From positions 3,100,001 through 3,164,000 of the forward strand of contig OX597839.1 of the NCBI GenBank assembly GCA_951406725.2: 64,000 bases of DNA. The letters are read 5' to 3'. Position 1 is the first letter of the stretch, and each line of letters begins with the position of its first letter. Made by a program: the position numbers and the translations under genes. Under the pieces are notes generated by a model, which was not told the origin of the DNA, made no database searches, and saw only the letters and a list, made by a program, of their open reading frames with translations. This DNA comes from Octopus vulgaris. Its lineage: Eukaryota. Positions 1,460 to 32,745 of the stretch are shown here, piece by piece.

Positions 1460-2562
1460 TAGAGTAGGGGACTGGCAATTGGAGTGCCGTGAGGCACTTC
1501 AACTACTCTCTCGGACGGGCAATGCCGGCAACAAGAGTTCCACTGCGGATTTCTATAGCAGGATAGTGGGATCGAAGTCCGAAGACGCCTTGGGAGAGAC
1601 CCTGAGCTACGATGATAGTCAGTTGATCAACCTGTTCAGAAGAACGTTCGGGTCGGGGTACCTGGATAATTATCAGAAATCCTTGGCTTGGCAGTGCTTC
1701 CGTGCGTGGTTACCAGTTTGTGATAAACTACCAAGGCACGGAAGTGCTGTCTCACCGACTTGTCCAAGGTGCGAGCAGGATAGGGAAACCGTCTTGCACG
1801 CATTCGTGGAATGTCCTGAATTTTTGGGACTGATAGTTTTTACAGAACAACTGATGTCATCGATGGGAAGAGTACAGCTATCAGCTGAGTTCATCATCGA
1901 GATTGTGCTGTCTCCTTCCCTTAGCGGGGAGAGGAAGGCCTGTTTTTTCTGCGTGGTGGCCAAATTGAAAGAAACAATATGGAAGACGCAGTTGAAATGG
2001 ATTGTGACGGGTACTCTTACTCTTTTACTTGTTTCAGTCATTTGACTGCGGCCATACTGGATCACCACCTTTTTTTTAATCGTGCAACTCGACCCCGGGA
2101 CTTATTCTTTTGTAAGCCCAGTACTTATTCTATCGGTCTCTTTTGCCGAACCGCTAAGTAACGGGGATATAAACACACCAGCATCGGTTGTCAAGCAATG
2201 CTAGGGGACAAACACAGACACACAAACACACACACGCATATATATATATACATATATACGACGGGCTTCTCTCAGTTTCCGTCTCCCAAATCCACTCACA
2301 AGGCTTTGGTCGGCCCGAGGCTATAGTAGAAGACACTTGCCCGAGGTGCGACGCAGTGGAACTGAACCCGGAACCATGTGGTTGGTAGACAAGCTACTTA
2401 CCACACAGCCACTCCTTCGTATCTGACCAAGGGCTGGTCAACTTTTTTAGTTACCACCTCAGCAGTAAGATTAGGCTGGAGAAGAGGTACCTGTCACGTG
2501 AAAAATTCAGAAAAAGATGGAAGCTTGTTGAGAGAAAGCTGGGAGTAACTAACACCAGGTGA
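1460..2562 (+). pseudogene. L1/Tx1-clade LINE ORF2 C-terminal fragment (zf-RVT-like), interrupted by a SINE
   Basis: LAWQCFRAWLPV...CPRCEQDRETVLHAFVECP zinc motif; after removing SINE 2017-2416 the protein resumes FVSDQGLVNFFSYHLSSKIRLEKRYLSREKFRKRWKLVERKL to TGA at 2560-2562. Confidence 0.8.
2017..2416 (-). mobile_element. tRNA-derived SINE, family A (near full length)
   Basis: Minus strand starts aggagtggctgtgtggtaagtagc (A box), ggttcagttcc (B-box-like), internal TA/TG microsatellite, tail gactgaaacaagtaaaagag; many copies in the window. Confidence 0.9.
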
Positions 2563-2778
2563 ACGGAGCCACGGAAAGAAAACAAAAGTACTACTCTGGT
2601 GTAGGATGCCTTTCCTTCGTGTTAAACATTGCCTTTAGCAATGTATTCATTTAAAATCTCATCTGTATGATAATCATTGTTAATTTTTAATCGTTTAAAG
2701 CTACTTCACCCTTTTTATGTTTGTCTGTCCTTGTCCGTCCCCTCTATGTATTGCTTTATGGCAAATATTATGAAATAA

Positions 2779-3155
2779 AGTAGCTTGCTTACCAACCACA
2801 TGGTTCCGGGTTCAGTCCCACTGCGTGGAACCTTGAGCAAGAGTCTTCTACTATAACCTCGGGTCGACCAAAGCCTTGTGAGTGGATTTGGTAGACGGAA
2901 ACTGAAACAAGCCCGTCGAATATATGTATATATACATATATGTATGTGTGTGTATATGTTTGTGTGTCCGTGTTTGTCCCCCAACATCGCTTGACAACCG
3001 ATGCTGATGTGTTTACGTCCCTGTAACTTAGCGGCTGGGCAAAAGAGACCGATAGAATAAGTACTAGGCTTACAAAGAATATGTTCTGGGGGCGATTTGC
3101 TCGACTAAAGGCGGTGCTCCAGCATGGCCACAGTCAAATGACCGAGTAAAAGAGT
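2779..3155 (+). mobile_element. SINE family A, 5'-truncated copy
   Basis: Co-linear with the reverse complement of 2017-2416. Confidence 0.88.
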
Positions 3156-3684
3156 AAAATAGTTTTAAAGGACAACGTGGTTAAGATTAGACATTTGTTT
3201 TTATAAAAAGAATCTTGGATAGATTTATAAAAATACTAGAATAGAAAATGAAATAAGTATACGATAAGACCATTAATTCTGAATAGTATGAAGGAAATAC
3301 CAAATCGCTGAGGTGACATAAAATTTAATTCATAGACATTAATCATCCATTCTTTTATTTGTAAACCACTTGCCGATGCTTTACACATACAAACAGCACT
3401 TGTGACGTCGGAAGACGTTGTCGAGTGCGTTGGAGTAGAAAACACAGCCACATAATCTTACTGTCTGATTATTATGAGAAGAAGGGGATATCGAGAAGAA
3501 TGGCCAAATGGCTGATCTCCAGTAGCCATTAGATACTGTATAAGGGAAATTATTGCTGTGTAGAATAAAAAGTAAGCGCAAAATATACAACAAAGGAAGA
3601 AACAAATATTTCGTGCATACGTGACCTTCTTCATGAATAGAAGATAGTTTAATGTTATCCTAATATATGAATAGGGTATGTGAA

Positions 3685-3919
3685 GGCGGCGAGCTGACAG
3701 AAGCGTTAGCACGCCGGGCGAAATGCGTAGCCGTATTTCGTTTGTCGTTATGTTCCGAATTCAAATTCCGCCGAGGTCGAATTTGCCTTTCATCCTTTCG
3801 GGGTCGATAAATTAAGTACCAGTTACGTACTGGGGTTGTTGTAATCAACTTAATCCCTTTGTCTGTCCTTGTTTGTTCCCTCTGTGTTTAGCCCCTTGTG
3901 GGTAGTAAAGAAATATATA
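3685..3919 (+). mobile_element. tRNA-derived SINE, family D, with 13-bp target-site duplication
   Basis: ggcggcgagctgacagaagcgttag head, gcctttcatcctttcggggtcgataaa core; aatagggtatgtg at 3670-3682 and 3920-3932. Confidence 0.9.
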
Positions 3920-3974
3920 AATAGGGTATGTGCTAGTATAGTCTTGTAGGAAGTAGAGTAAATACAACCGATAA

Positions 3975-4100
3975 TGAATGAAGACCAATTCAACTTCTCA
4001 GCCAAAAACATTCCACTTCCGACGAGGAAGTATTATATGGAACGTAAAAGACTTTTTCTATTCATGAGCGTTATACTAATACATCTGTTTGTTTTGTACA
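3975..4100 (+). mobile_element. Decayed Penelope-like ORF start fused to a PLE-type terminal sequence
   Basis: FNFSAKNIPLPTRKYY resembles the KNIP motif at the N-terminus of some PLE ORFs; 4041-4098 resembles terminus 21657-21725. Confidence 0.45.
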
Positions 4101-4121
4101 GACAGACAGACAGACAGACAG

Positions 4122-4243
<122 letters not shown>

Positions 4244-4648
4244 GAGTATATATGTGCGTGTGAGTGTTTTCTTTTAAACAGACTTCATATCTATGTATAT
4301 TATAAGAATGATTCCTTATATATTTAAGCAACTTCACTTAGAGAAAGCGATGAGGAAGGCAGGCAAGTCGCACCTGTGCTATAATAGTTAGAGTAAATGG
4401 ATAGCCTTCTGGAGTGACGTCCTTTGATATTTCGAATTCTCAAATTGCTACCAGGCTTAAATTTCTCTTTCGTGTGTTTGGAGTCACAGGAATTTAGGTG
4501 ACAGTCATATTTCAAGTTCAAATCGATGAGATAGCAAAGGGTATTGCTTTTCAATAAAAATTGCAATGTACGTACGTGAGTGTGTGCGTATATACATATG
4601 TCTATCTATCTGTATGTATGTATGCATTATGTATGTATGAATGTATGC

Positions 4649-4707
<59 letters not shown>

Positions 4708-4863
4708 AACACAGGCATATCTGTATGTGTATATATATGTGAGTGTGTGTTTATATATTTATTGCAATTATATATATATATATATGTATGTGTATATGTA
4801 TGTATGTATATAATAATATAAATAATATATACATACGTATATGTACATACTTATATCTATACG

Positions 4864-4919
<56 letters not shown>

Positions 4920-4939
4920 TATATATATGCATATGTGAG

Positions 4940-5185
4940 CACAGGACGTCACGAAACATGTACAACAAAATAATACGAAGTACGAGTACATGGAATATGA
5001 ACTATTTTTTCGAACAACAAAAGACACAAACGGAAAACAAGACAAACAACATAAAGAACCACCCTTCATCATTTGTTGGCTGTTTTCTACTCTCGTATTT
5101 CGAGCATTTAACAATAATATACGCTTTCGATATAACAGTTGCTCTCGCAAACAAATTAAATAATGACGTCTAGTTGTATTATAGA
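4940..5185 (-). mobile_element. Putative PLE-type terminal fragment between microsatellites
   Basis: Shares gagtagaaaac(a)cagcc motif with 3430-3450; bounded by TA/CA tracts. Confidence 0.3.
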
Positions 5186-5194
5186 TATACTCAT

Positions 5195-5229
<35 letters not shown>

Positions 5230-5988
5230 TGTATATATATGTTTTCATATGTATATGTAATGTATATATATATGTGTGTGTATATATATATATATACAAA
5301 TATATACATGCACAACTATGTATGTATATATATATATGTATATTCGTCCGTATTTATATTTGTGTGTGTGTCTATGTGTATATATAAATATTCATGAATA
5401 CATGATTCCATACATCTGCGTACACATTCACACACACACACTAACACGCATTCACACACACACACGTACATTTTCTCCGAACAATGCACTCTGCAATCTC
5501 CAAACCCCGTTTTATTTTTCGTTTTTAATGCTACCCTACTTCATAGTCTCGTAGAAGTAATACCGGAAGTAAAGTAGAACTAACAAAAACAGAACAGATA
5601 AAGGAATGAACGAACGATAAAGAAACAAAACAAAACAAAACAAAACAAAACAAGACAAAACACAGAAGCAAGCAAAAGAAAAATGTTTATAATTGTCTAC
5701 GTAATACCATAATAAGATGGAAAACTAAAGATACTATTTTTAGTAAATTCTCTACTCCAGACATTCAGACTTAACTACAAAGAGACGTATTCTTTAGGAA
5801 GCAGTCTCAGTTTTGTTGTCTTTGAAGAAAGAGAAATGGAATCGTTATGTAAGTTAATTCTTAGTATGTCAGTCAAGTAAGTAAAGCCTCTTTTGACTTA
5901 GTTACGCTCAGTTGATGGCTGCTGGATTATCTCGGTATCTTTGGTATCTGTCTTTATCGATGTTAACGATGTAACACACAGTTGCCTA

Positions 5989-6408: not shown

Positions 6409-6789
6409 TCTTTATATATAAAAGTGAAGTTGTGTGTCTGTCTCCTACGATTTAGATTCCTAACTACTCCCACATATTGCGGTGCAGTGTAACCAAAACC
6501 GGGTATCTTATAGTCGTGATTCATATCGAGGCCTTCTGGGTATTAGCGCGCGTCTACGATGAGTCTACGATTTTAAAAAAAAATTACCATTTTTAATGCA
6601 TTTTTTTGCTATTATATAAGGGAAATAACTCTCTAAAAATGTATTATTAAATTTCAGAACGTAAAATGCTACAGTAACACTCCCTTTGTGGTTAGCCATA
6701 TTGAGATAGCTATTATACTTTACATCTCTGAAAATGCTTATATAGCTATTTCCCTTACAAACCCGAGCAACGCCGGGCGATACTGCTAG
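6409..6789 (+). mobile_element. Non-autonomous Helitron-type element
   Basis: A|TC start (tctttatatataaaag), subterminal hairpin cccgagcaacgccggg, CTAG|T end. Confidence 0.7.
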
Positions 6790-6984
6790 TTATTTATATA
6801 AGTCACGTACTTCCCCATATATATAGATAGAGAGATACATACATACATACACACATCACACATAGATTAGATTGATTTCATTGTGTGTGTATGCATGTGT
6901 GTATGTACGCGTGTGTGTGCGTATATATATATGTATATATATATGTATATACATGTGTGTGTGTATGTGTGTGTGTGTGTATGT

Positions 6985-7212: not shown

Positions 7213-7696
7213 TATGCAAAGAAAGAGAAATTGTAGGTACAAGAAAAGGTCAAAGGTCAATCTCTGCAATGAGCAAACCGCTTAAAAAATGTTAGCAAGC
7301 AGTGACTTCGAAGACATTAGCCTATTTTTCCTAGTAAATAGTAATGAATATTAGCCAGTAAGAAAATCTCTATAAGAGATGAAACAGTAACTATACGGAG
7401 AAGTAAGGTTTATCATTATTTCAATATGGCTCTTCTGTAGGAACGGACGTTACAACCGTTTTAACCTGAGGAGTGCGCCTTCACTAGCTGGTTATTGGAT
7501 GCAATCTGCATCCTATATATATTGCAAGCAGGGGAACTGACCCTTTTCCGAGGTGCCACGTAGTGGAAGTGAATCCGGAATCACGTGGTTGGGAAGCAAG
7601 CTTCTTACCACACAGCCACACTTGTAGTATAAATTTTTTATGTGTATATATATATATATATATAGGGTGTGTGAATTTTTATGTATGTATTTATAT

Positions 7697-13399: not shown

Positions 13400-13553
13400 A
13401 GGCGCAGGAGTGGCTGTGTGGTAAGTAGCTTGCTCACCAACCACATGGTTCCGGGTTCAGTTCCACTTGGACAAATGTCTTCTACTATAGCCTCGGGCCG
13501 ACCAAAACCTTGTGAGTGGATTTGGTAGACGGAAACTGAAAGAAGCCCGTCGT
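13400..13553 (+). mobile_element. SINE family A, 5' half
   Basis: ggcgcaggagtggctgtgtggtaagtagc head. Confidence 0.88.
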
Positions 13554-14046
13554 ACAACACCACACCGCAGCCACACAACCACATACTACTCACACACCTA
13601 CACACCACAACACAACACACAAACCACCATACATCACCAAACCACTTCACCACATAGCAACACCCTGCACACACTAGCATTGACCACTTCCTCGCATCCA
13701 CACCACACATCACCATACCACACCCACCATGCCACACCACATCACACACACTAGCACTGACCACTTCTCGGCGCGCACACCATCATCCGCACGCCTACAC
13801 ACACGTCAAGATCACCAGCCCCAATCCAAACGTACACACTCGCTCTCAAATACACACGCAGGGGCACCTTCGTTTTGGGATCACCACTATTTTATTATCT
13901 CCCCTTCTTCCTAGCTCTCTTATCTGTCCACCTCTGTCCAGCCATCGCTATGATCGATCGCTAGCCACTGAAGCTTTTTTTATTCTCCCTCTGTTTATTT
14001 TCTCGTGTTCCTTTCTGTTGAAGAGCCTAGGCTCGAAACGTAAAAT
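13554..14046 (+). mobile_element. PLE-type 3' fragment ending in a minimal HHR-like motif
   Basis: CA-rich tract, then ctttCTGTTGAagagcctaggctcGAAACGTAaaa, homologous to 21630-21667. Confidence 0.6.
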
Positions 14047-14101
14047 ATTTTATCACCCTAGAACCGTTGTATACACACACACACACACACACACACACAA
14101 A

Positions 14102-16073
14102 TGTAGTGATGGTTTGTTGCCAACTGAATGTGGCAGTCCCAGGAAAGAGGAAAATGTTACTGCTATTTAGCCCCATGAAACACCGTTACCAGTTGGCCAC
14201 GTGACACAAGCATTCTAGGCCCTTATAGTTTCAAACATGAGAGATAAGCACCTCCACCCAGCAAAGCCAGCATCCAGAGACTAGTTTCAGAGTCATTGCT
14301 TATCATCAGTCTGGAGTAGCATGGCTTGCTAGCTTAATTCATTATTACAGGCACAAGGCCTAAATACAGAGAGGACATACAAAGACATACGGGAACAAAA
14401 AACACATGAAAAAAAGAATGTAAAATGAATTAAATTACAATGAAAATGAGATGTTCATCTCGGTCCTGCTCCGAGATGAAACCGTGAACTCCTTCCCCCC
14501 ACCCATTTTTTAAATTTACATTTTAACTAAATATTTCCAGCCCCGCTCGGAGGCGAAACTGCGACTTCCCTTTTGACTTTCACCATACAATTTTAAAACT
14601 TTTTTTTTTAAATATTCGTTCATATATTTCCAGAATTTACTTATTTCCTTTTTTTTTAGCAATAAGTTTAAGCAAATGCTTTTCACACAGTTTCTAAAAT
14701 AAATCACGACTTACCATTTCCTCTCCTTTTCGTCCACATTATTCACCACCGAGGTGCAGGGTTCGACATCTACCTCCAGCCTCAGTCAGATCAATCTTTC
14801 ACAATGTCTTTCAATTTTGAAATTCTTTCAAGTTTGGGCTGTCCTATATTTCACAATAAATTTTCCTTTTGTCTGTGTTTTGCGTGTTTTCACTTTTTGT
14901 CTCTATATTTCCGCAGTTTTTGGCTTCCACGTGATTGTGTCCGTGTATCCGTGTATTTGTGTGTCTGTATGTTCGTTTGACTGTAATTCTACGTGTTTCG
15001 TCTGTGTGTCTATGTCTTTAGGTTTCCGTAATTCTGGGTTGTCTTGTTTCTGTCCGTTATTACTTGTGTGCTTTTGCCTGTTCATGTGTTTAAGTGCCTG
15101 CTGGTCTGAATGCCTCTGTACTTGTAAGTTCTTTACTGGTGATCCTACTGGTAAATCTTCCTCGTTTCTCGTCGTGAGTTGGGCTTCTTCTTCCATTGTT
15201 TTGTGCTTCTTTAATCCCACTATTATCGGTGACTTCCTTCTCTCTTCGCTTTTCTTCTTCAGCTCCGAATTAAAAATTGCTGCTATTATCTACTCTGGGT
15301 CTATCGACGGTGGGATTCATCCCACCCTAATTCTAACAATTCTTTTGCCCAAAGTTTAGCATCAACGTCCATTTTTCTCCCTGTATCAGCCTGTTGTCGG
15401 GTTTTTTCGCCTCCTCTTCTGATACACAGGTTACTACTATCGACGCATGTATCTTTCCTCTTGTAAAGAACGTTATAGTCTCCTATTTTTTCTTCCAAGA
15501 TTTCTTCTATCTCTTCCTGCGGCGCGTGTTCCATTCTTCTATTTTCATTCAAAAATATTCTGAATATGACCGTCTTCGTTTCTATTTTCCTTTTTCCTCC
15601 ACTGGCAGGGTCATTTTTATATTTGACCCGTCTTTCTTTACCATACCATGATATTTGTTTATTAGCTTCTCATTCCACTGTATCATCTCCGACTTCAACA
15701 CACGTGGGTCTAGAGGAACTCGACCTCCAGTAGCCTCTGCGTAAATTTTCAATTTTTCAATTGTTTCACTACCACCCAATAATGGCGGCTTCGCACAAAA
15801 AATCGGCTAGAATTCTTCAAAAAATAACAAAGGCGTGGCCTTGCTAGCTGTCGACGCTTTGAAAACATAGATTTCAATATCTTAGAGAAATTTATACAGT
15901 AGATACACGATAAAGTGATGGTTTGTTGCCAACTGAATGTGGCAGTCCCAGGAAACGGAAAATTCTACTGTTATTTAGCTACAGGAAACACCGTTTCCAG
16001 TTGGATATGCGACACAAGCGTTATGTGTCCTTATGTTTTCAAAGAAGGGAGATAAGCACCTCTACCCAGCAAA
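14102..16073 (-). mobile_element. HHR-bearing non-autonomous retroelement with L1/Tx1-ORF1-like remnant and direct terminal repeat
   Basis: Frameshifted KTVIFRIFLN...EEIEEILEEK...RIRVGWIPPSIDPE*IIAAI resembles the ORF1 at 33.7-34.3 kb; 15914-16073 is a diverged direct repeat of 14105-14265; HHR at 14273-14315. Confidence 0.7.
14273..14315 (-). ncRNA. Type I hammerhead ribozyme
   Basis: Minus strand UCCAGA-CUGAUGA-weak stem II-GAAAC-UA-GUC^UCUGGA. Confidence 0.8.
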
Positions 16074-16101
16074 AGTGTCACATGGCCAACTGGAAACGGT
16101 G

Positions 16102-17330
16102 TTGTTAGAATTAGGATGGGAAGAATCTCACCGTCGATAGACCCAAAGTAGATAATAGCAGCAATTTTTAATTCGGAGCTGAAGAAGAAAAGCGATGAGA
16201 GAAGGAAGTCAGTGACGATAGTGGGATTAAAGAAGCACAAAACAATGGAAGAGGAAACCCGACCCACGACGAGAAACGAGGAAGATTTACCAGTAGGATC
16301 ACCAGTAAAGAACTTACAAGTACAGAGTCATTCAGACCAGCAGGCACTTAAACACATGAACAGGCAAAAGCACACAAGTAATAACGGACAGAAACAAGAC
16401 AACCCAGAATTACGGAAACCTAAAGACATAGACACACAGACGAAACACGTAGAATTACAGTCAAACGAATACACAGACACACAAATACACGAACACACGG
16501 ATACAATCACGCGAAAGCCAAAACCTGCAGAAATATAGAGACAAAAAGCGACAACATGCAAAACATAGACAAAAAGAAAATTTATTGTGAAATATAGGAC
16601 AGCCCAAACTTGAAAGAATTTCAAAATTGAAAGACATTGTGAAATATTGATCTGACTGAGGCTGGAGGTAGATGTCGAACCCTGCACCTCGGTGGTGAAT
16701 AATGTGGACGAAAATTCGTGATTTATTTCAGAAACTGTGTGAAATACATTTGGTTAAACTTACTGCTGAAAAAAAAAAGGAAGAAAAAAAGGAAATAAGT
16801 AAATTCTGGAAATATATGAACGAACATTTTAAAAAAAAAAGTTTTGATAATGTATGGTGAAAATCAAAAGGGAAGTCGCAGTTTCGCCTCCGAGCGGGGC
16901 TGGAAATATTTAGTTAAAATGTAAATTTAAAAACTTAAAGAAGTTCACGGTTTCATCTCGGAGCAGGACCGAGATGAACGTCTCATTTTCATTGTAATTG
17001 AATTCATTTTACATTCATTTTTTCATGTGTTTTTTGTTCCCGTATGTCTTTGTATGTCCTCTCTGTATTTAGGCCTTGTACCTGTAATAATGAATTAAGC
17101 TAGCAAGCCATGCTACTCCAGACTGATGATAAGCAATGACTCTGAAACTAGTCTCTGGATGCTGGCTTTACTGGGTGAAGGTGCTTATCTCTCATGTTTG
17201 AAACTGTAAGGGCCTAGAATGCTTGTGTCACGTGGCCATCTGGAAACGGTGTTTCATGGGGCTAAATAGCAGTAACACTTTCCTCTGTCCTGGGACTGCC
17301 ACATTCAGTTGGCAACAAACCATCACTACA
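16102..17330 (+). mobile_element. Inverted, 5'-truncated second copy of the 14102-15339 element
   Basis: Reverse complement of 14102-15339 with scattered substitutions and small indels; duplicated ORFs 14903-15220/16212-16538. Confidence 0.92.
17117..17159 (+). ncRNA. Type I hammerhead ribozyme
   Basis: tccaga CTGATGA taagcaatgactct GAAAC ta GTC tctgga; stem I extends agcca/tggct (17106-17110/17163-17167). Confidence 0.8.
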
Positions 17331-17339
17331 TGTGTGTGT

Positions 17340-20491: not shown

Positions 20492-20835
20492 ACCCGCCTC
20501 ACTAGCACCCACCATCGACCCTATCCCATCATCCACTCCTTCACCTGCACCTCCAGCAATATTATCTATTGCATCTCTTGCTCTCTCTGCAATTCCTTGT
20601 ATATCGGACAAACGGGACGCCGCTTGGCTGACCGGTTCGCGGAACACCTTCGTGACATCCACCTTGCGAACGACACACCGGTCTCACGCCATTTCCGCTC
20701 CACCGGTCACTCCTTGCAACACCTATCTGTGTTCGGTTTGTCCTTACACAGAGGCCATCCGGATTCCCGTTTGCGCCGTGAACAGGAATTAATCTTCTCC
20801 CTTCGCTCTTATACGCCATTTGGTCTCAACTCTCC
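20489..20835 (+). pseudogene. Penelope-like element GIY-YIG endonuclease domain (5'-truncated ORF)
   Basis: SFTCTSSNIIYCISCSLCNSLYIGQTGRRLADRFAEHLRDI...PVSRHF...RLRREQELIFSLRSYTPFGLN. Confidence 0.92.
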
Positions 20836-21764
20836 CCCCCCTCCTCATCTAACCCCCCTCCCCCCTCCTCACCTATCCTTTCTCCCCCCGACCCCTACTT
20901 CTACAGTCCTTCATCCTTTCACCCCTACTCCCCTTCCCTTCTTCCCTCTTTCTCCCTCCCTCTTCCCCTTCCCTCTGCTCCCTCACTCCCTCTCTCCCTC
21001 TTTCCTCCTTCATCCCCCTTCTCCCCCATCCTCTCCTCTTCCCCCTCTTCTTCCCCTCGCCTTCTCTCCCCCTCTTCTCCCCCTCCCCTCTTCTCCTCAC
21101 TACACCACATGACTTTACACATCACATCACATATGATGTGCCATACTAATACACACACCAACTAATACATACTAATACGTACTAATACATACCAGTACAT
21201 ACTAATACTTACACCAACCCTATACATACACACGTCCAGACCCCGCATACGCACTTATACTCTCTCACACACACACACACACACCTATACATACCAATAC
21301 GTACTAATACATACTAATACATACTAATACATACACCAACCCCATACATACGCACGTCCAGACCAATCTTACGCACTAATACTCTCTCATACACACACAC
21401 ACACCCTTATACATACTAATACATACACCAACCCTATACATACACACATCCAGACCCCTCCCACGCACTTTTAGCTGGTCCCTCAACCCTTTTATCAACC
21501 CTATTATCTCCCCTTATTTCGCTCTCGCGTCTCATGTTTGATCTTTGACCTCTGGCCGAAATCAGATCGCCATGTTGATTCGTTAGCTACTGCACGCATT
21601 TTTTTTCTCTCCTTCTTTCTGTGTTTTTCTCTCTCTGTTGAAGAGCGTAGGCTCGAAACGTTAAAGACTTGTTTTATTTATATTTCCTGAGCGCCATACT
21701 AATACAATTGTTCGTTTGTTTTCCACCTGCCTTCGTCTTTTGTTTATTTTCATAAAGCTTCCCG

Positions 21765-21766
<2 letters not shown>
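20489..21766 (+). mobile_element. 5'-truncated Penelope-like element inserted in (TA)n
   Basis: GIY-YIG, pyrimidine-rich and about 110-bp triplicated UTR (21150-21470), terminus with HHR-like motif 21630-21667, TA tracts on both sides. Confidence 0.82.
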
Positions 21767-21804
<38 letters not shown>

Positions 21805-21999
21805 TAATTCTCTAAAAGGGATATAGACAGTAACTGCTCGATAACATAAGGGACTAAAGCCATCTGAATATGGCTAGGGACAGGGCAGGGTGGTGGGGGT
21901 GTTACTGTTGCATTTAGCCCCAGGCGAACATCGACGTCACCAGAAAGGCTCGACACCGTCACGGTGCCCTTAACCTGCAAAGGGAGGTAATTCCCCGAT

Positions 22000-22073
22000 G
22001 AAGCGGAAACCACACACGGACCATGGTTTCAAGGTGTATTGCCTATCATCGGCGTGTGGTAGGCCTCCGCTTC
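22000..22073 (-). ncRNA. Type I hammerhead ribozyme (CCGAUGA core)
   Basis: Reverse complement of 22489-22562. Confidence 0.75.
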
Positions 22074-22488
22074 CTCGACGAATTCTCACTCTGCAGGATT
22101 TTCTTATATAGATTTTCAAGCAAAATACATTTGCTGATTTCGAAAATCTGTTCGAAAGCAATAATAATTCTCTAAAAGGGATATAGACAGTAACTGCTCG
22201 ATAACATAAGGGACTAAAGCCATCTGAATATGGCTAGGGACAGGGCAGGGTGGTGGGGGTGTTACTGTTGCATTTAGCCCCAGGCGAACATCGACGTCAA
22301 CACCCCCACCACCCTGCCCTGTCCCTAGCCATATTCAGATGGCTTTAGTCCCTTATGTTATCGAGCAGTTACTGTCTATATCCCTTTTAGAGGAATTATT
22401 ATTGCTTTCGAACAGATTTTCGAAATCAGCAAATGTATTTTGCTTGAAAATCTATATAGAAAATCCTGCAGAGTGAGAATTCGTCGAG

Positions 22489-22562
22489 GAAGCGGAGGCC
22501 TACCACACGCCGATGATAGGCAATACACCTTGAAACCATGGTCCGTGTGTGGTTTCCGCTTC
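22489..22562 (+). ncRNA. Type I hammerhead ribozyme (CCGAUGA core); repeated at 22849-22922, 23209-23282 and 23569-23642
   Basis: cacacg CCGATGA t-agg caataca cct-t GAAAC catg GTC^ cgtgtg; distal stem I gaagcgga/tccgcttc. Confidence 0.78.
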
Positions 22563-23794
22563 ATCGGGGAATTACCTCCCTTTGCAGGTTAAGGGCACCG
22601 TGACGGTGTCGAGCCTTTCTGGTGACGTCGATGTTCGCCTGGGGCTAAATGCAACAGTAACACCCCCACCACCCTGCCCTGTCCCTAGCCATATTCAGAT
22701 GGCTTTAGTCCCTTATGTTATCGAGCAGTTACTGTCTATATCCCTTTTAGAGAATTATTATTGCTTTCGAACAGATTTTCGAAATCAGCAAATGTATTTT
22801 GCTTGAAAATCTATATAAGAAAATCCTGCAGAGTGAGAATTCGTCGAGGAAGCGGAGGCCTACCACACGCCGATGATAGGCAATACACCTTGAAACCATG
22901 GTCCGTGTGTGGTTTCCGCTTCATCGGGGAATTACCTCCCTTTGCAGGTTAAGGGCACCGTGACGGTGTCGAGCCTTTCTGGTGACGTCGATGTTCGCCT
23001 GGGGCTAAATGCAACAGTAACACCCCCACCACCCTGCCCTGTCCCTAGCCATATTCAGATGGCTTTAGTCCCTTATGTTATCGAGCAGTTACTGTCTATA
23101 TCCCTTTTAGAGAATTATTATTGCTTTCGAACAGATTTTCGAAATCAGCAAATGTATTTTGCTTGAAAATCTATATAAGAAAATCCTGCAGAGTGAGAAT
23201 TCGTCGAGGAAGCGGAGGCCTACCACACGCCGATGATAGGCAATACACCTTGAAACCATGGTCCGTGTGTGGTTTCCGCTTCATCGGGGAATTACCTCCC
23301 TTTGCAGGTTAAGGGCACCGTGACGGTGTCGAGCCTTTCTGGTGACGTCGATGTTCGCCTGGGGCTAAATGCAACAGTAACACCCCCACCACCCTGCCCT
23401 GTCCCTAGCCATATTCAGATGGCTTTAGTCCCTTATGTTATCGAGCAGTTACTGTCTATATCCCTTTTAGAGAATTATTATTGCTTTCGAACAGATTTTC
23501 GAAATCAGCAAATGTATTTTGCTTGAAAATCTATATAAGAAAATCCTGCAGAGTGAGAATTCGTCGAGGAAGCGGAGGCCTACCACACGCCGATGATAGG
23601 CAATACACCTTGAAACCATGGTCCGTGTGTGGTTTCCGCTTCATCGGGGAATTACCTCCCTTTGCAGGTTAAGGGCACCGTGACGGTGTCGAGCCTTTCT
23701 GGTGACGTCGATGTTCGCCTGGGGCTAAATGCAACAGTAACACCCCCACCACCCTGCCCTGTCCCTAGCCATATTCAGATGGCTTTAGTCCCTT

Positions 23795-23831
<37 letters not shown>

Positions 23832-24199: not shown

Positions 24200-25055
24200 T
24201 TTACATTTTCTGTTAATTTTATATTATAGCTTCTTTTACCTGTATCGATTGCTAATCCTCCAGACTTATGAGATTTATCAGGTGTATCAGACGTATTTAG
24301 TACTTGGTGGGTCGTTTATGGTCATTTCTAAGTTTGATCGGGCCAGTGGCTCGTGTGTCAATTCTACTCATCTGATTATTAGTACAAATAACCTTAAGTT
24401 TAATGCTATGGTGGTAAAATATCACTTGATAACCACTTCGTTTGAGGACTTCATTGTAATATTCTGCATTATTTAAGAATATCATTTGTTTGGTGAAAAG
24501 ATTAGAGATTCTAATAGATATATTCTTTACTATGCCGTTCCTAACTGAAAATGGATGGTTAAAGGATCGATGGATGTACTGTAGATTCTCGTTTGGCTTA
24601 TGACAGAAGCGGTGTGTTTGTCAGATTAATCAAAGGTTTGGTCAAGAAAATTAACAGTAGTATTTCCAATTTCCGAACGAGATAGTTAGATTAACGTTTT
24701 TGAAAAACCTGTGTAATTTCTTCCTTAATCTTTCTAAGGACGAGGAAGCGTGGTTCGAAACCGTAATTTGAATGTCATCTCCACTGATATGTGGGAAGAA
24801 TTTGCATAGTTCATATAAAATATATAGACCTACAAGGTCAGTAACCTGAACAGAGTCAGATGAGCCCATAGCAACATTGAACTGATTATCACGGAACGCG
24901 CGGGTATCAGGGTATATAAATTTTGTCATTAAAAATATATAAATTTTGTCATTAGAGATTTAAAAAAAATTTCTAGCCTTATTCAGCAGAAAAGGATATA
25001 TCGTGGAAAGACAGTTATTTATGTTAAACTGGAGGAGAGCTATTTTATTATTCTT
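24200..25055 (-). pseudogene. Decayed Penelope-like RT/thumb fragment
   Basis: FNVAMGSSDSVQVTDLVGLYILYEL...LERLRKKLHRFFK; YYNEVLKRSGY. Confidence 0.72.
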
Positions 25056-32689: not shown

Positions 32690-32745
32690 AAGGACCACTG
32701 ATGAGGTCACGGGAGTGTGAAGAAAGAACTCTGGCCGAAATAAGA
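32690..32745 (+). ncRNA. Partial hammerhead motif in a PLE-like terminal region
   Basis: CTGATGA ggtca...gagt/actc...tggcc GAAA; stem I/III partners not found. Confidence 0.45.

Follow-up and report, generated by a model that had tools for sequence, protein, structure and literature searches.

Known systems for comparison

Penelope-type reverse transcriptases are the closest relatives of telomerase. Their RNA recognition and two-armed insertion have been addressed by one in vitro study. As far as the available text of that work goes, the Poseidon protein of the anole cleaves both strands of AT-rich DNA, needs no homology to its target and has in vitro two internal starts which bracket a tail and lie in a stem-loop downstream of a hammerhead, the binding and initiation region lying within the first 172 nt of the ORF (PMC11167929). 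Insertions of EN+ Penelope-like elements are marked, in the available part of their description, by partial tandems, an inverted 5′-truncated copy, a tail at one end and a bias towards (TA)n (PMC8557442). Metazoan non-LTR retrozymes are dispersed, high-copy tandems whose non-coding units of 350–360 bp each contain a type I hammerhead and which often match the pLTR of a coding element; the portions available to us describe neither a conserved fold beyond the hammerhead nor fixed double ends (PMC7229834; bioRxiv 10.64898/2026.07.22.740005). As a class they are already known as non-autonomous Penelope-like derivatives (bioRxiv 10.64898/2026.07.22.740005).

The window, which is the whole 64,000-nt stretch of Octopus vulgaris DNA that was analysed, holds retrozymes of this type. 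The part downstream of their hammerhead, the module, is the subject here. The reading we favour, with moderate confidence, is that of a covarying RNA pattern of several helices, common by descent to non-coding hammerhead retrozymes, which likely docks a borrowed Penelope-type reverse transcriptase/endonuclease and so sets its two internal starts. Like the Poseidon region it is downstream of a hammerhead, has two internal ends bracketing a tail, and goes with an AT-rich target and no need for homology, but it is non-coding, its tail is 46–60 nt and its fold is defined by covariation; the likeness to the Poseidon PAc is one of description. It shares the insertion marks of EN+ elements, though the retrozymes here are without a reverse transcriptase or endonuclease ORF, and no match to the pLTR of a coding element was found for them. 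The literature searched holds no description of a covarying domain linked to two ends; its novelty may depend on supplementary material (the PAc stem-loop in Figs S1B and S2C of PMC11167929, and the supplements to the bioRxiv preprint).

Retrozymes in the window and beyond

21800..23799, unstranded: 360-bp retrozyme of family A1, inserted as two arms placed head to head with (TA)n on both sides (minus arm 22302->21800, plus arm 22299->23799)
22503..22552, plus: type I hammerhead with short palindromic stem III, architecture as in the available text of PMC4209133; predicted from its core to cut after GUC at 22543
14101..17331, unstranded: family B retrozyme, inserted as two arms that both stop at end 1, defined below (minus arm 16075->14101, plus arm 16102->17331), and carrying an ORF1-only insert
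15875..16066, minus: complete family B module, internal copy
7364..7543, minus: decayed family C module copy
6663..6725, plus: A5-type module piece that stops at end 1 and lies within a Helitron-like repeat

In every unit of the A1 array a type I hammerhead lies about 20 nt 5′ of the module. The array resembles a non-LTR retrozyme in its tandem hammerhead units and lack of a protein of its own: the longest ATG-led frame of the 360-nt unit is 50 codons, and there is no long frame, linear or circular. Copies 99–100% identical occur on many contigs of the 2.8-Gb genome (at least 189 matches, with 40 of 702 candidates scored), and the unit is also present in sequencing runs of several other organisms, with no RNA run among those listed. 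Cyclic 390-nt contigs in sequencing runs, whose RNA nature is a guess, fit circles or tandem DNA alike. A TATA-like CTATATAAG at 22811–22819, some 50 nt 5′ of the next hammerhead, is a possible unit promoter.

The preliminary description of this DNA had listed complementary motifs after the hammerhead in both the 360-bp unit and the 14–17 kb element, and all of them are present where it placed them: ACAGTAAC at 22654–22661 with GTTACTGT at 22728–22735, GGCACCG at 22594 with CGGTGTC at 22604, GCCATATTCAGATGGC at 22688–22703 and, on the minus strand, ACAGTAGA with TCTACTGT at 15971–15964 and 15903–15896. GAUGAUARGCAAU is indeed common to both hammerheads. That the module follows a hammerhead in both elements is true of the copies at 17186–17331 and 14101–14266, which have the hammerhead and stop short of the long stem's 3′ strand, but not of the copy at 15890–16060, which has none in front and is cut at the inversion junction near 16075. 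The module is not a chance arrangement, since the hairpin pattern has 4529 exact genome matches compared with 1 for a reversed control, and the pattern of hairpin plus stem strand has 4146 compared with 0.

Iterated searches found the module in families A1–A5, B, B3, C, D, E, F and further variants, family discovery being by patterns and DNA searches. It is part of a superfamily of 350–360-bp hammerhead repeats (retrozymes) with thousands of copies in at least six lineages, whose identity is 52–77% (anchored columns, eight comparisons); tandem spacing is 342–363 nt, and families A, B, D and F and their relatives have type I hammerheads. A pattern scan of metagenomes gave 2 matches, both in bacterial-looking coding contigs and neither fitting the model.

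Retrozyme pieces also occur in other settings. The repeat at 6410–6790 is one that we take to be Helitron-like (5′ TC, 3′ hairpin plus CTAG), and the same composite with its A5-type module piece recurs in locus L133, so another element has captured a retrozyme end and spread it. Locus L215 has at 4334–5200 an array with 119-bp spacing of the 3′ module part plus (TA)n, without the hammerhead.

The fold and its covariation

22566..22580, plus: helix H1, predicted from folding alone, covariation not counted
22594..22610, plus: hairpin H2, two-sided change in 3/6 pairs across families
22612..22646, plus: hairpin H3, two-sided change in 6/10 pairs; outer stem AGCC/GGCU, conserved internal loop (..CU / UGG), inner stem GGUGA/UCGCC
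22654..22735, plus: long stem P (22654–22661 with 22728–22735), closing a multi-branch loop
22688..22703, plus: hairpin H5, GCCA/UGGC, the most conserved part, with pairing probability of about 1 in the full monomer
22740..22754, plus: hairpin H6, imperfect in A1, 76–78% of cells paired, little covariation

Folded independently, the consensus modules of B2, B3, C, E and A4 give the same layout: H1, H2, H3 with its 4 × 3 internal loop, then P closing a loop with the small hairpin H4, H5 and a linker, and finally H6. A1–A3 are without H4, which the youngest family has lost and which in A1 is replaced by a C-rich stretch. The sequence ggggctaaat is not a loop motif, as its GGCU pairs with the upstream AGCC. 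In the long stem, AGA/UCU is a variant peculiar to the subfamily in the window, the usual family form being CAGUAGC/GCUACUG.

Covariation was scored on sequence-only alignments of real copies against 500 shuffles, A1–A3 being left out of the H2/H3 alignment because of a loop insertion in H3. Cells with two-sided change numbered 21 for P/H5/H6 (8.9 when shuffled) and 30 for H2/H3 (10.0), each above all 500 shuffles, though such an excess can arise from relatedness alone. Counts of pairs are weaker against the shuffles, being not significant for P/H5/H6 (46/500) and weak for H2/H3 (15/500). Fourteen held-out copies, a set biased towards pairing because they were chosen by pattern or model, have 27 such cells (10.6 in shuffles), and 11/20 of their pairs change on both sides (1/500); pairing in P is 93% and pair 7–71 is AU, GC or UA in 14/14. 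When the registers were slid, all paired far less than the true register. In stem P itself two-sided change affects 6/8 pairs, or 5/8 among the held-out copies. A further point against P/H5/H6 is that its G-U cells are no more numerous than its A-C cells (17 and 19), which in H2/H3 number 22 and 10.

With the tree taken into account, H2/H3 has 7 compensated branches where 1.06 are expected (P ~5e-5, or 0.03 under the most generous null) and P/H5/H6 has 4 where 1.7 are expected (P = 0.07). The latter value, the homology of the families over the whole unit, beyond the motifs first listed, and the passing of a single-pair covariation filter by 230/6290 unrelated column pairs would all suit a module that is inherited but hardly constrained in structure, or one made of promoter motifs in the DNA, the covariation then being a few inherited events. 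We think this quite unlikely, as P and H2 have stacked covarying pairs, H2/H3 is significant on the tree, and family F has rewritten P on both strands (GCGGUGGUG/CACCACCGC) with 9/9 pairs kept. The original proposal of a conserved, covarying cis RNA whose pairing outlasts divergence is supported, held-out copies included.

Stability counts both for and against the fold, stem P being marginal thermodynamically. Subfamily consensus modules of B, C, D and E fold with z of −2.3 to −3.8 (7/7 rows), and the module copies of the window are no more stable than shuffles (0.23 and −0.71; A1 consensus −0.26). Within whole monomers H5 holds in 4/5 units, as does H3, and stem P has a probability of 0.00–0.07 in 4/5 units and 0.96 in one, enforcing it costing 0.5–5.8 kcal/mol. 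Stem P, if formed, probably needs a protein or a folding path.

Could such a fold be a second self-cleaving or ligating ribozyme, as the preliminary description allowed? Its multi-branch form would suit this, as would the bases that are conserved though unpaired in the internal loop of H3 and the loop of H5, and the sharp insertion ends described below could be cut sites. However, a single cut cannot explain two ends each used once on opposite strands, and a possible pseudoknot of A1, GGGGCUAAA/UUUAGUCCC, is not conserved. No Rfam ribozyme matches two module regions at E ≤ 10, a weak negative because the hammerhead itself was also missed. A ribozyme here is, we consider, very unlikely. Nor does any other Rfam family explain the module: for the same two regions ribozyme, SECIS, IRES and tRNA models gave no family match (best E 4.7 and 0.16), and the best 150 of 334 matches for the whole window are sub-threshold microsatellite look-alikes. 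ARAGORN found no tRNA in 10/10 loci. An HDV-like pseudoknot built from GGGGCUAAA/UUUAGUCCC was considered and rejected, being confined to A1/A2.

Two insertion ends at fixed distances from the fold

22718..22721, plus: end 1 in unit coordinates, 15 nt after H5 and about 8 nt before the P 3′ strand
22764..22765, plus: end 2 in unit coordinates, 61 nt after H5, just past H6

The stretch from end 1 to end 2, the ‘tail’, is 46 nt in A1 and 46–60 nt overall. Among 126 distinct microsatellite-bounded ends after H5, 51 are at +7 to +20 and 71 at +52 to +82 nt (122/126 in all), with peaks at +15/+61 from H5 in family A and +11/+71 in family D. The sequence at end 1 varies between families, at most 1–4 nt of it being shared with the target, and the end lies about 8 nt before the P 3′ strand irrespective of the local sequence. 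One end of each kind is present in 23/23 two-armed family A rows (22 distinct loci), a count limited to insertions of less than 3.2 kb with both ends in (TA)n. The exception is the older family B insertion of the window, in which end 1 is used by both arms. Inverted 5′-truncated arm, tail at one end and microsatellite target, (TA)n, are all as in Penelope-like insertions.

Fixed ends beside a fold are a correlation, not a demonstrated cause, and the fold might be selected for another RNA step (circle stability, ligation, export, ORF1-type packaging or control of a dimeric hammerhead), with the ends set by local features or RNA 3′ ends. Whole monomers do fold into long rod-like stems, the best-covarying hairpins, H2 and H3, lie 70–120 nt from end 1, and retrozyme circles are abundant in other animals in the available account (PMC7229834). 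We nevertheless judge this rather unlikely: the distance of end 1 to H5 and to the P strand is constant across families that differ in local sequence, and the use of one end of each kind fits two primed starts. Of the three functions first offered for the module, recognition by a reverse transcriptase is the one that fits ends fixed relative to the fold.

The family B composite

14334..15839, minus: decayed ORF1-only (zinc-knuckle) insert, just upstream of the hammerhead

On the minus strand the order in the 14–17 kb element is module, ORF, hammerhead and truncated module, to which the inverted truncated arm is added. Duplicated GCTAGCAAG sites (15840–15848 and 14325–14333) flank the insert as a target-site duplication, and the empty site was found in loci L063, L123 and L127. 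The duplication and the empty site make this a nested insert, and the module is therefore common to the two elements by descent: in the 14–17 kb element a sister retrozyme took up the insert, and the composite was later moved in one piece as a two-armed unit. Sharing of the module, as first noticed, stands, but the independence that this seemed to imply was wrong, the elements being sister families.

The ORF encodes a zinc knuckle (zf-CCHC) in related loci, with a ZCCHC3-like lead and 370 distant relatives. It is broken in 20/20 loci examined, the longest open stretch being 256 aa; longer homologues were not found at E ≤ 0.001, which is weak evidence. With ORF1 alone and a target-site duplication it is like the HAL1 half-L1, as far as that is described in the available part of PMC5753468, in encoding only an ORF1-type zinc-knuckle protein; it differs in sitting at a fixed site in a retrozyme and then moving along with it. 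The insert is at the same site before the family B hammerhead in the window (14334–15839) and in L071 and L079, and in some loci is stacked twice.

Because the module precedes an ORF in this composite, and because self-cleavage can drive translation in viral UTRs (from the accessible portion of PMC13725137), a cap-independent translation element had been among the functions suggested. Yet the sole ORF is a later insert with its target-site duplication, and the module is carried by ORF-less family units, the 360-nt one having no long frame, whether linear or circular. We hold a role in translation to be most improbable.

A probable docking site for a borrowed enzyme

The pattern is kept despite sequence divergence and the ends are fixed to it, which makes it a likely handle for a borrowed Penelope-type reverse transcriptase. 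The data show that the families have the fold in common, that there are two fixed ends of which two-armed insertions use one each, and that the target is (TA)n. The retrozyme unit would be transcribed, and its hammerhead would cut the transcript to give monomers or circles. H3, P and H5 may be bound by an enzyme that a coding Penelope-like element supplies and that would nick (TA)n on both strands. One start would be primed within the multi-branch loop (end 1) and the other immediately beyond H6 (end 2), and the two cDNAs would then join head to head, the stretch between the starts being the ‘tail’. More tentatively, and at well under even likelihood in our estimation, the module could be a discrete docking domain like that of telomerase RNA, a portable fold setting two priming sites, one per DNA strand, by which circular non-coding RNAs would hijack an enzyme that has no sequence in common with them and carry inserted cargo (here a 1.5-kb half-LINE).

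Natural variation maps a candidate recognition domain here to the level of base pairs and gives two start points that are exact, besides a family that is very young; with these the mechanism can be tested directly. The 14–17 kb composite shows that the unit is movable with 1.5 kb of foreign sequence, which is relevant to RNA-templated insertion tools.

Coding Penelope-like elements and neighbouring repeats

None of the Hydra-, Neptune-, Nematis- and Poseidon-like elements sampled has the module at its ends; these clade names are presumptive, read from motifs and domain order. A partner was sought through the Hydra-like fragment of the window, a GIY-YIG family, a Nematis-like family of 1312 aa and Poseidon-like reverse transcriptases, none of which has the module. 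The few module matches near coding elements are separate insertions or lie across a microsatellite, with no direct junction in the loci examined, and a 3′ end shared with a coding partner, the mark of a non-autonomous Penelope-like element, was not found among the families sampled. Either the partner is among unsampled families (Naiads, or rarer ones) or the RNA is recognised by shape.

In one contig (run X5, window 23013) the 360-bp unit is joined to a Hydra-like 3′ end in reverse complement; as a single case it is possibly a template switch. A very young Nematis-like coding family, with copies 98–100% identical and the 1312-aa ORF, is at 1978–5913 (minus) of locus L261. It has a hammerhead and a 55-nt tail, and a piece of its end is at 32698 in the window. 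The 3′ ends of Neptune-type elements at 20495–21776 and 13547–14072 adjoin both retrozyme insertions, the microsatellite alone lying between. A decayed Hydra-like reverse transcriptase fragment is at 24300–25050 on the minus strand, and a C-terminal piece of an L1/Tx1-type ORF2 (zf-RVT) at 1452–2045.
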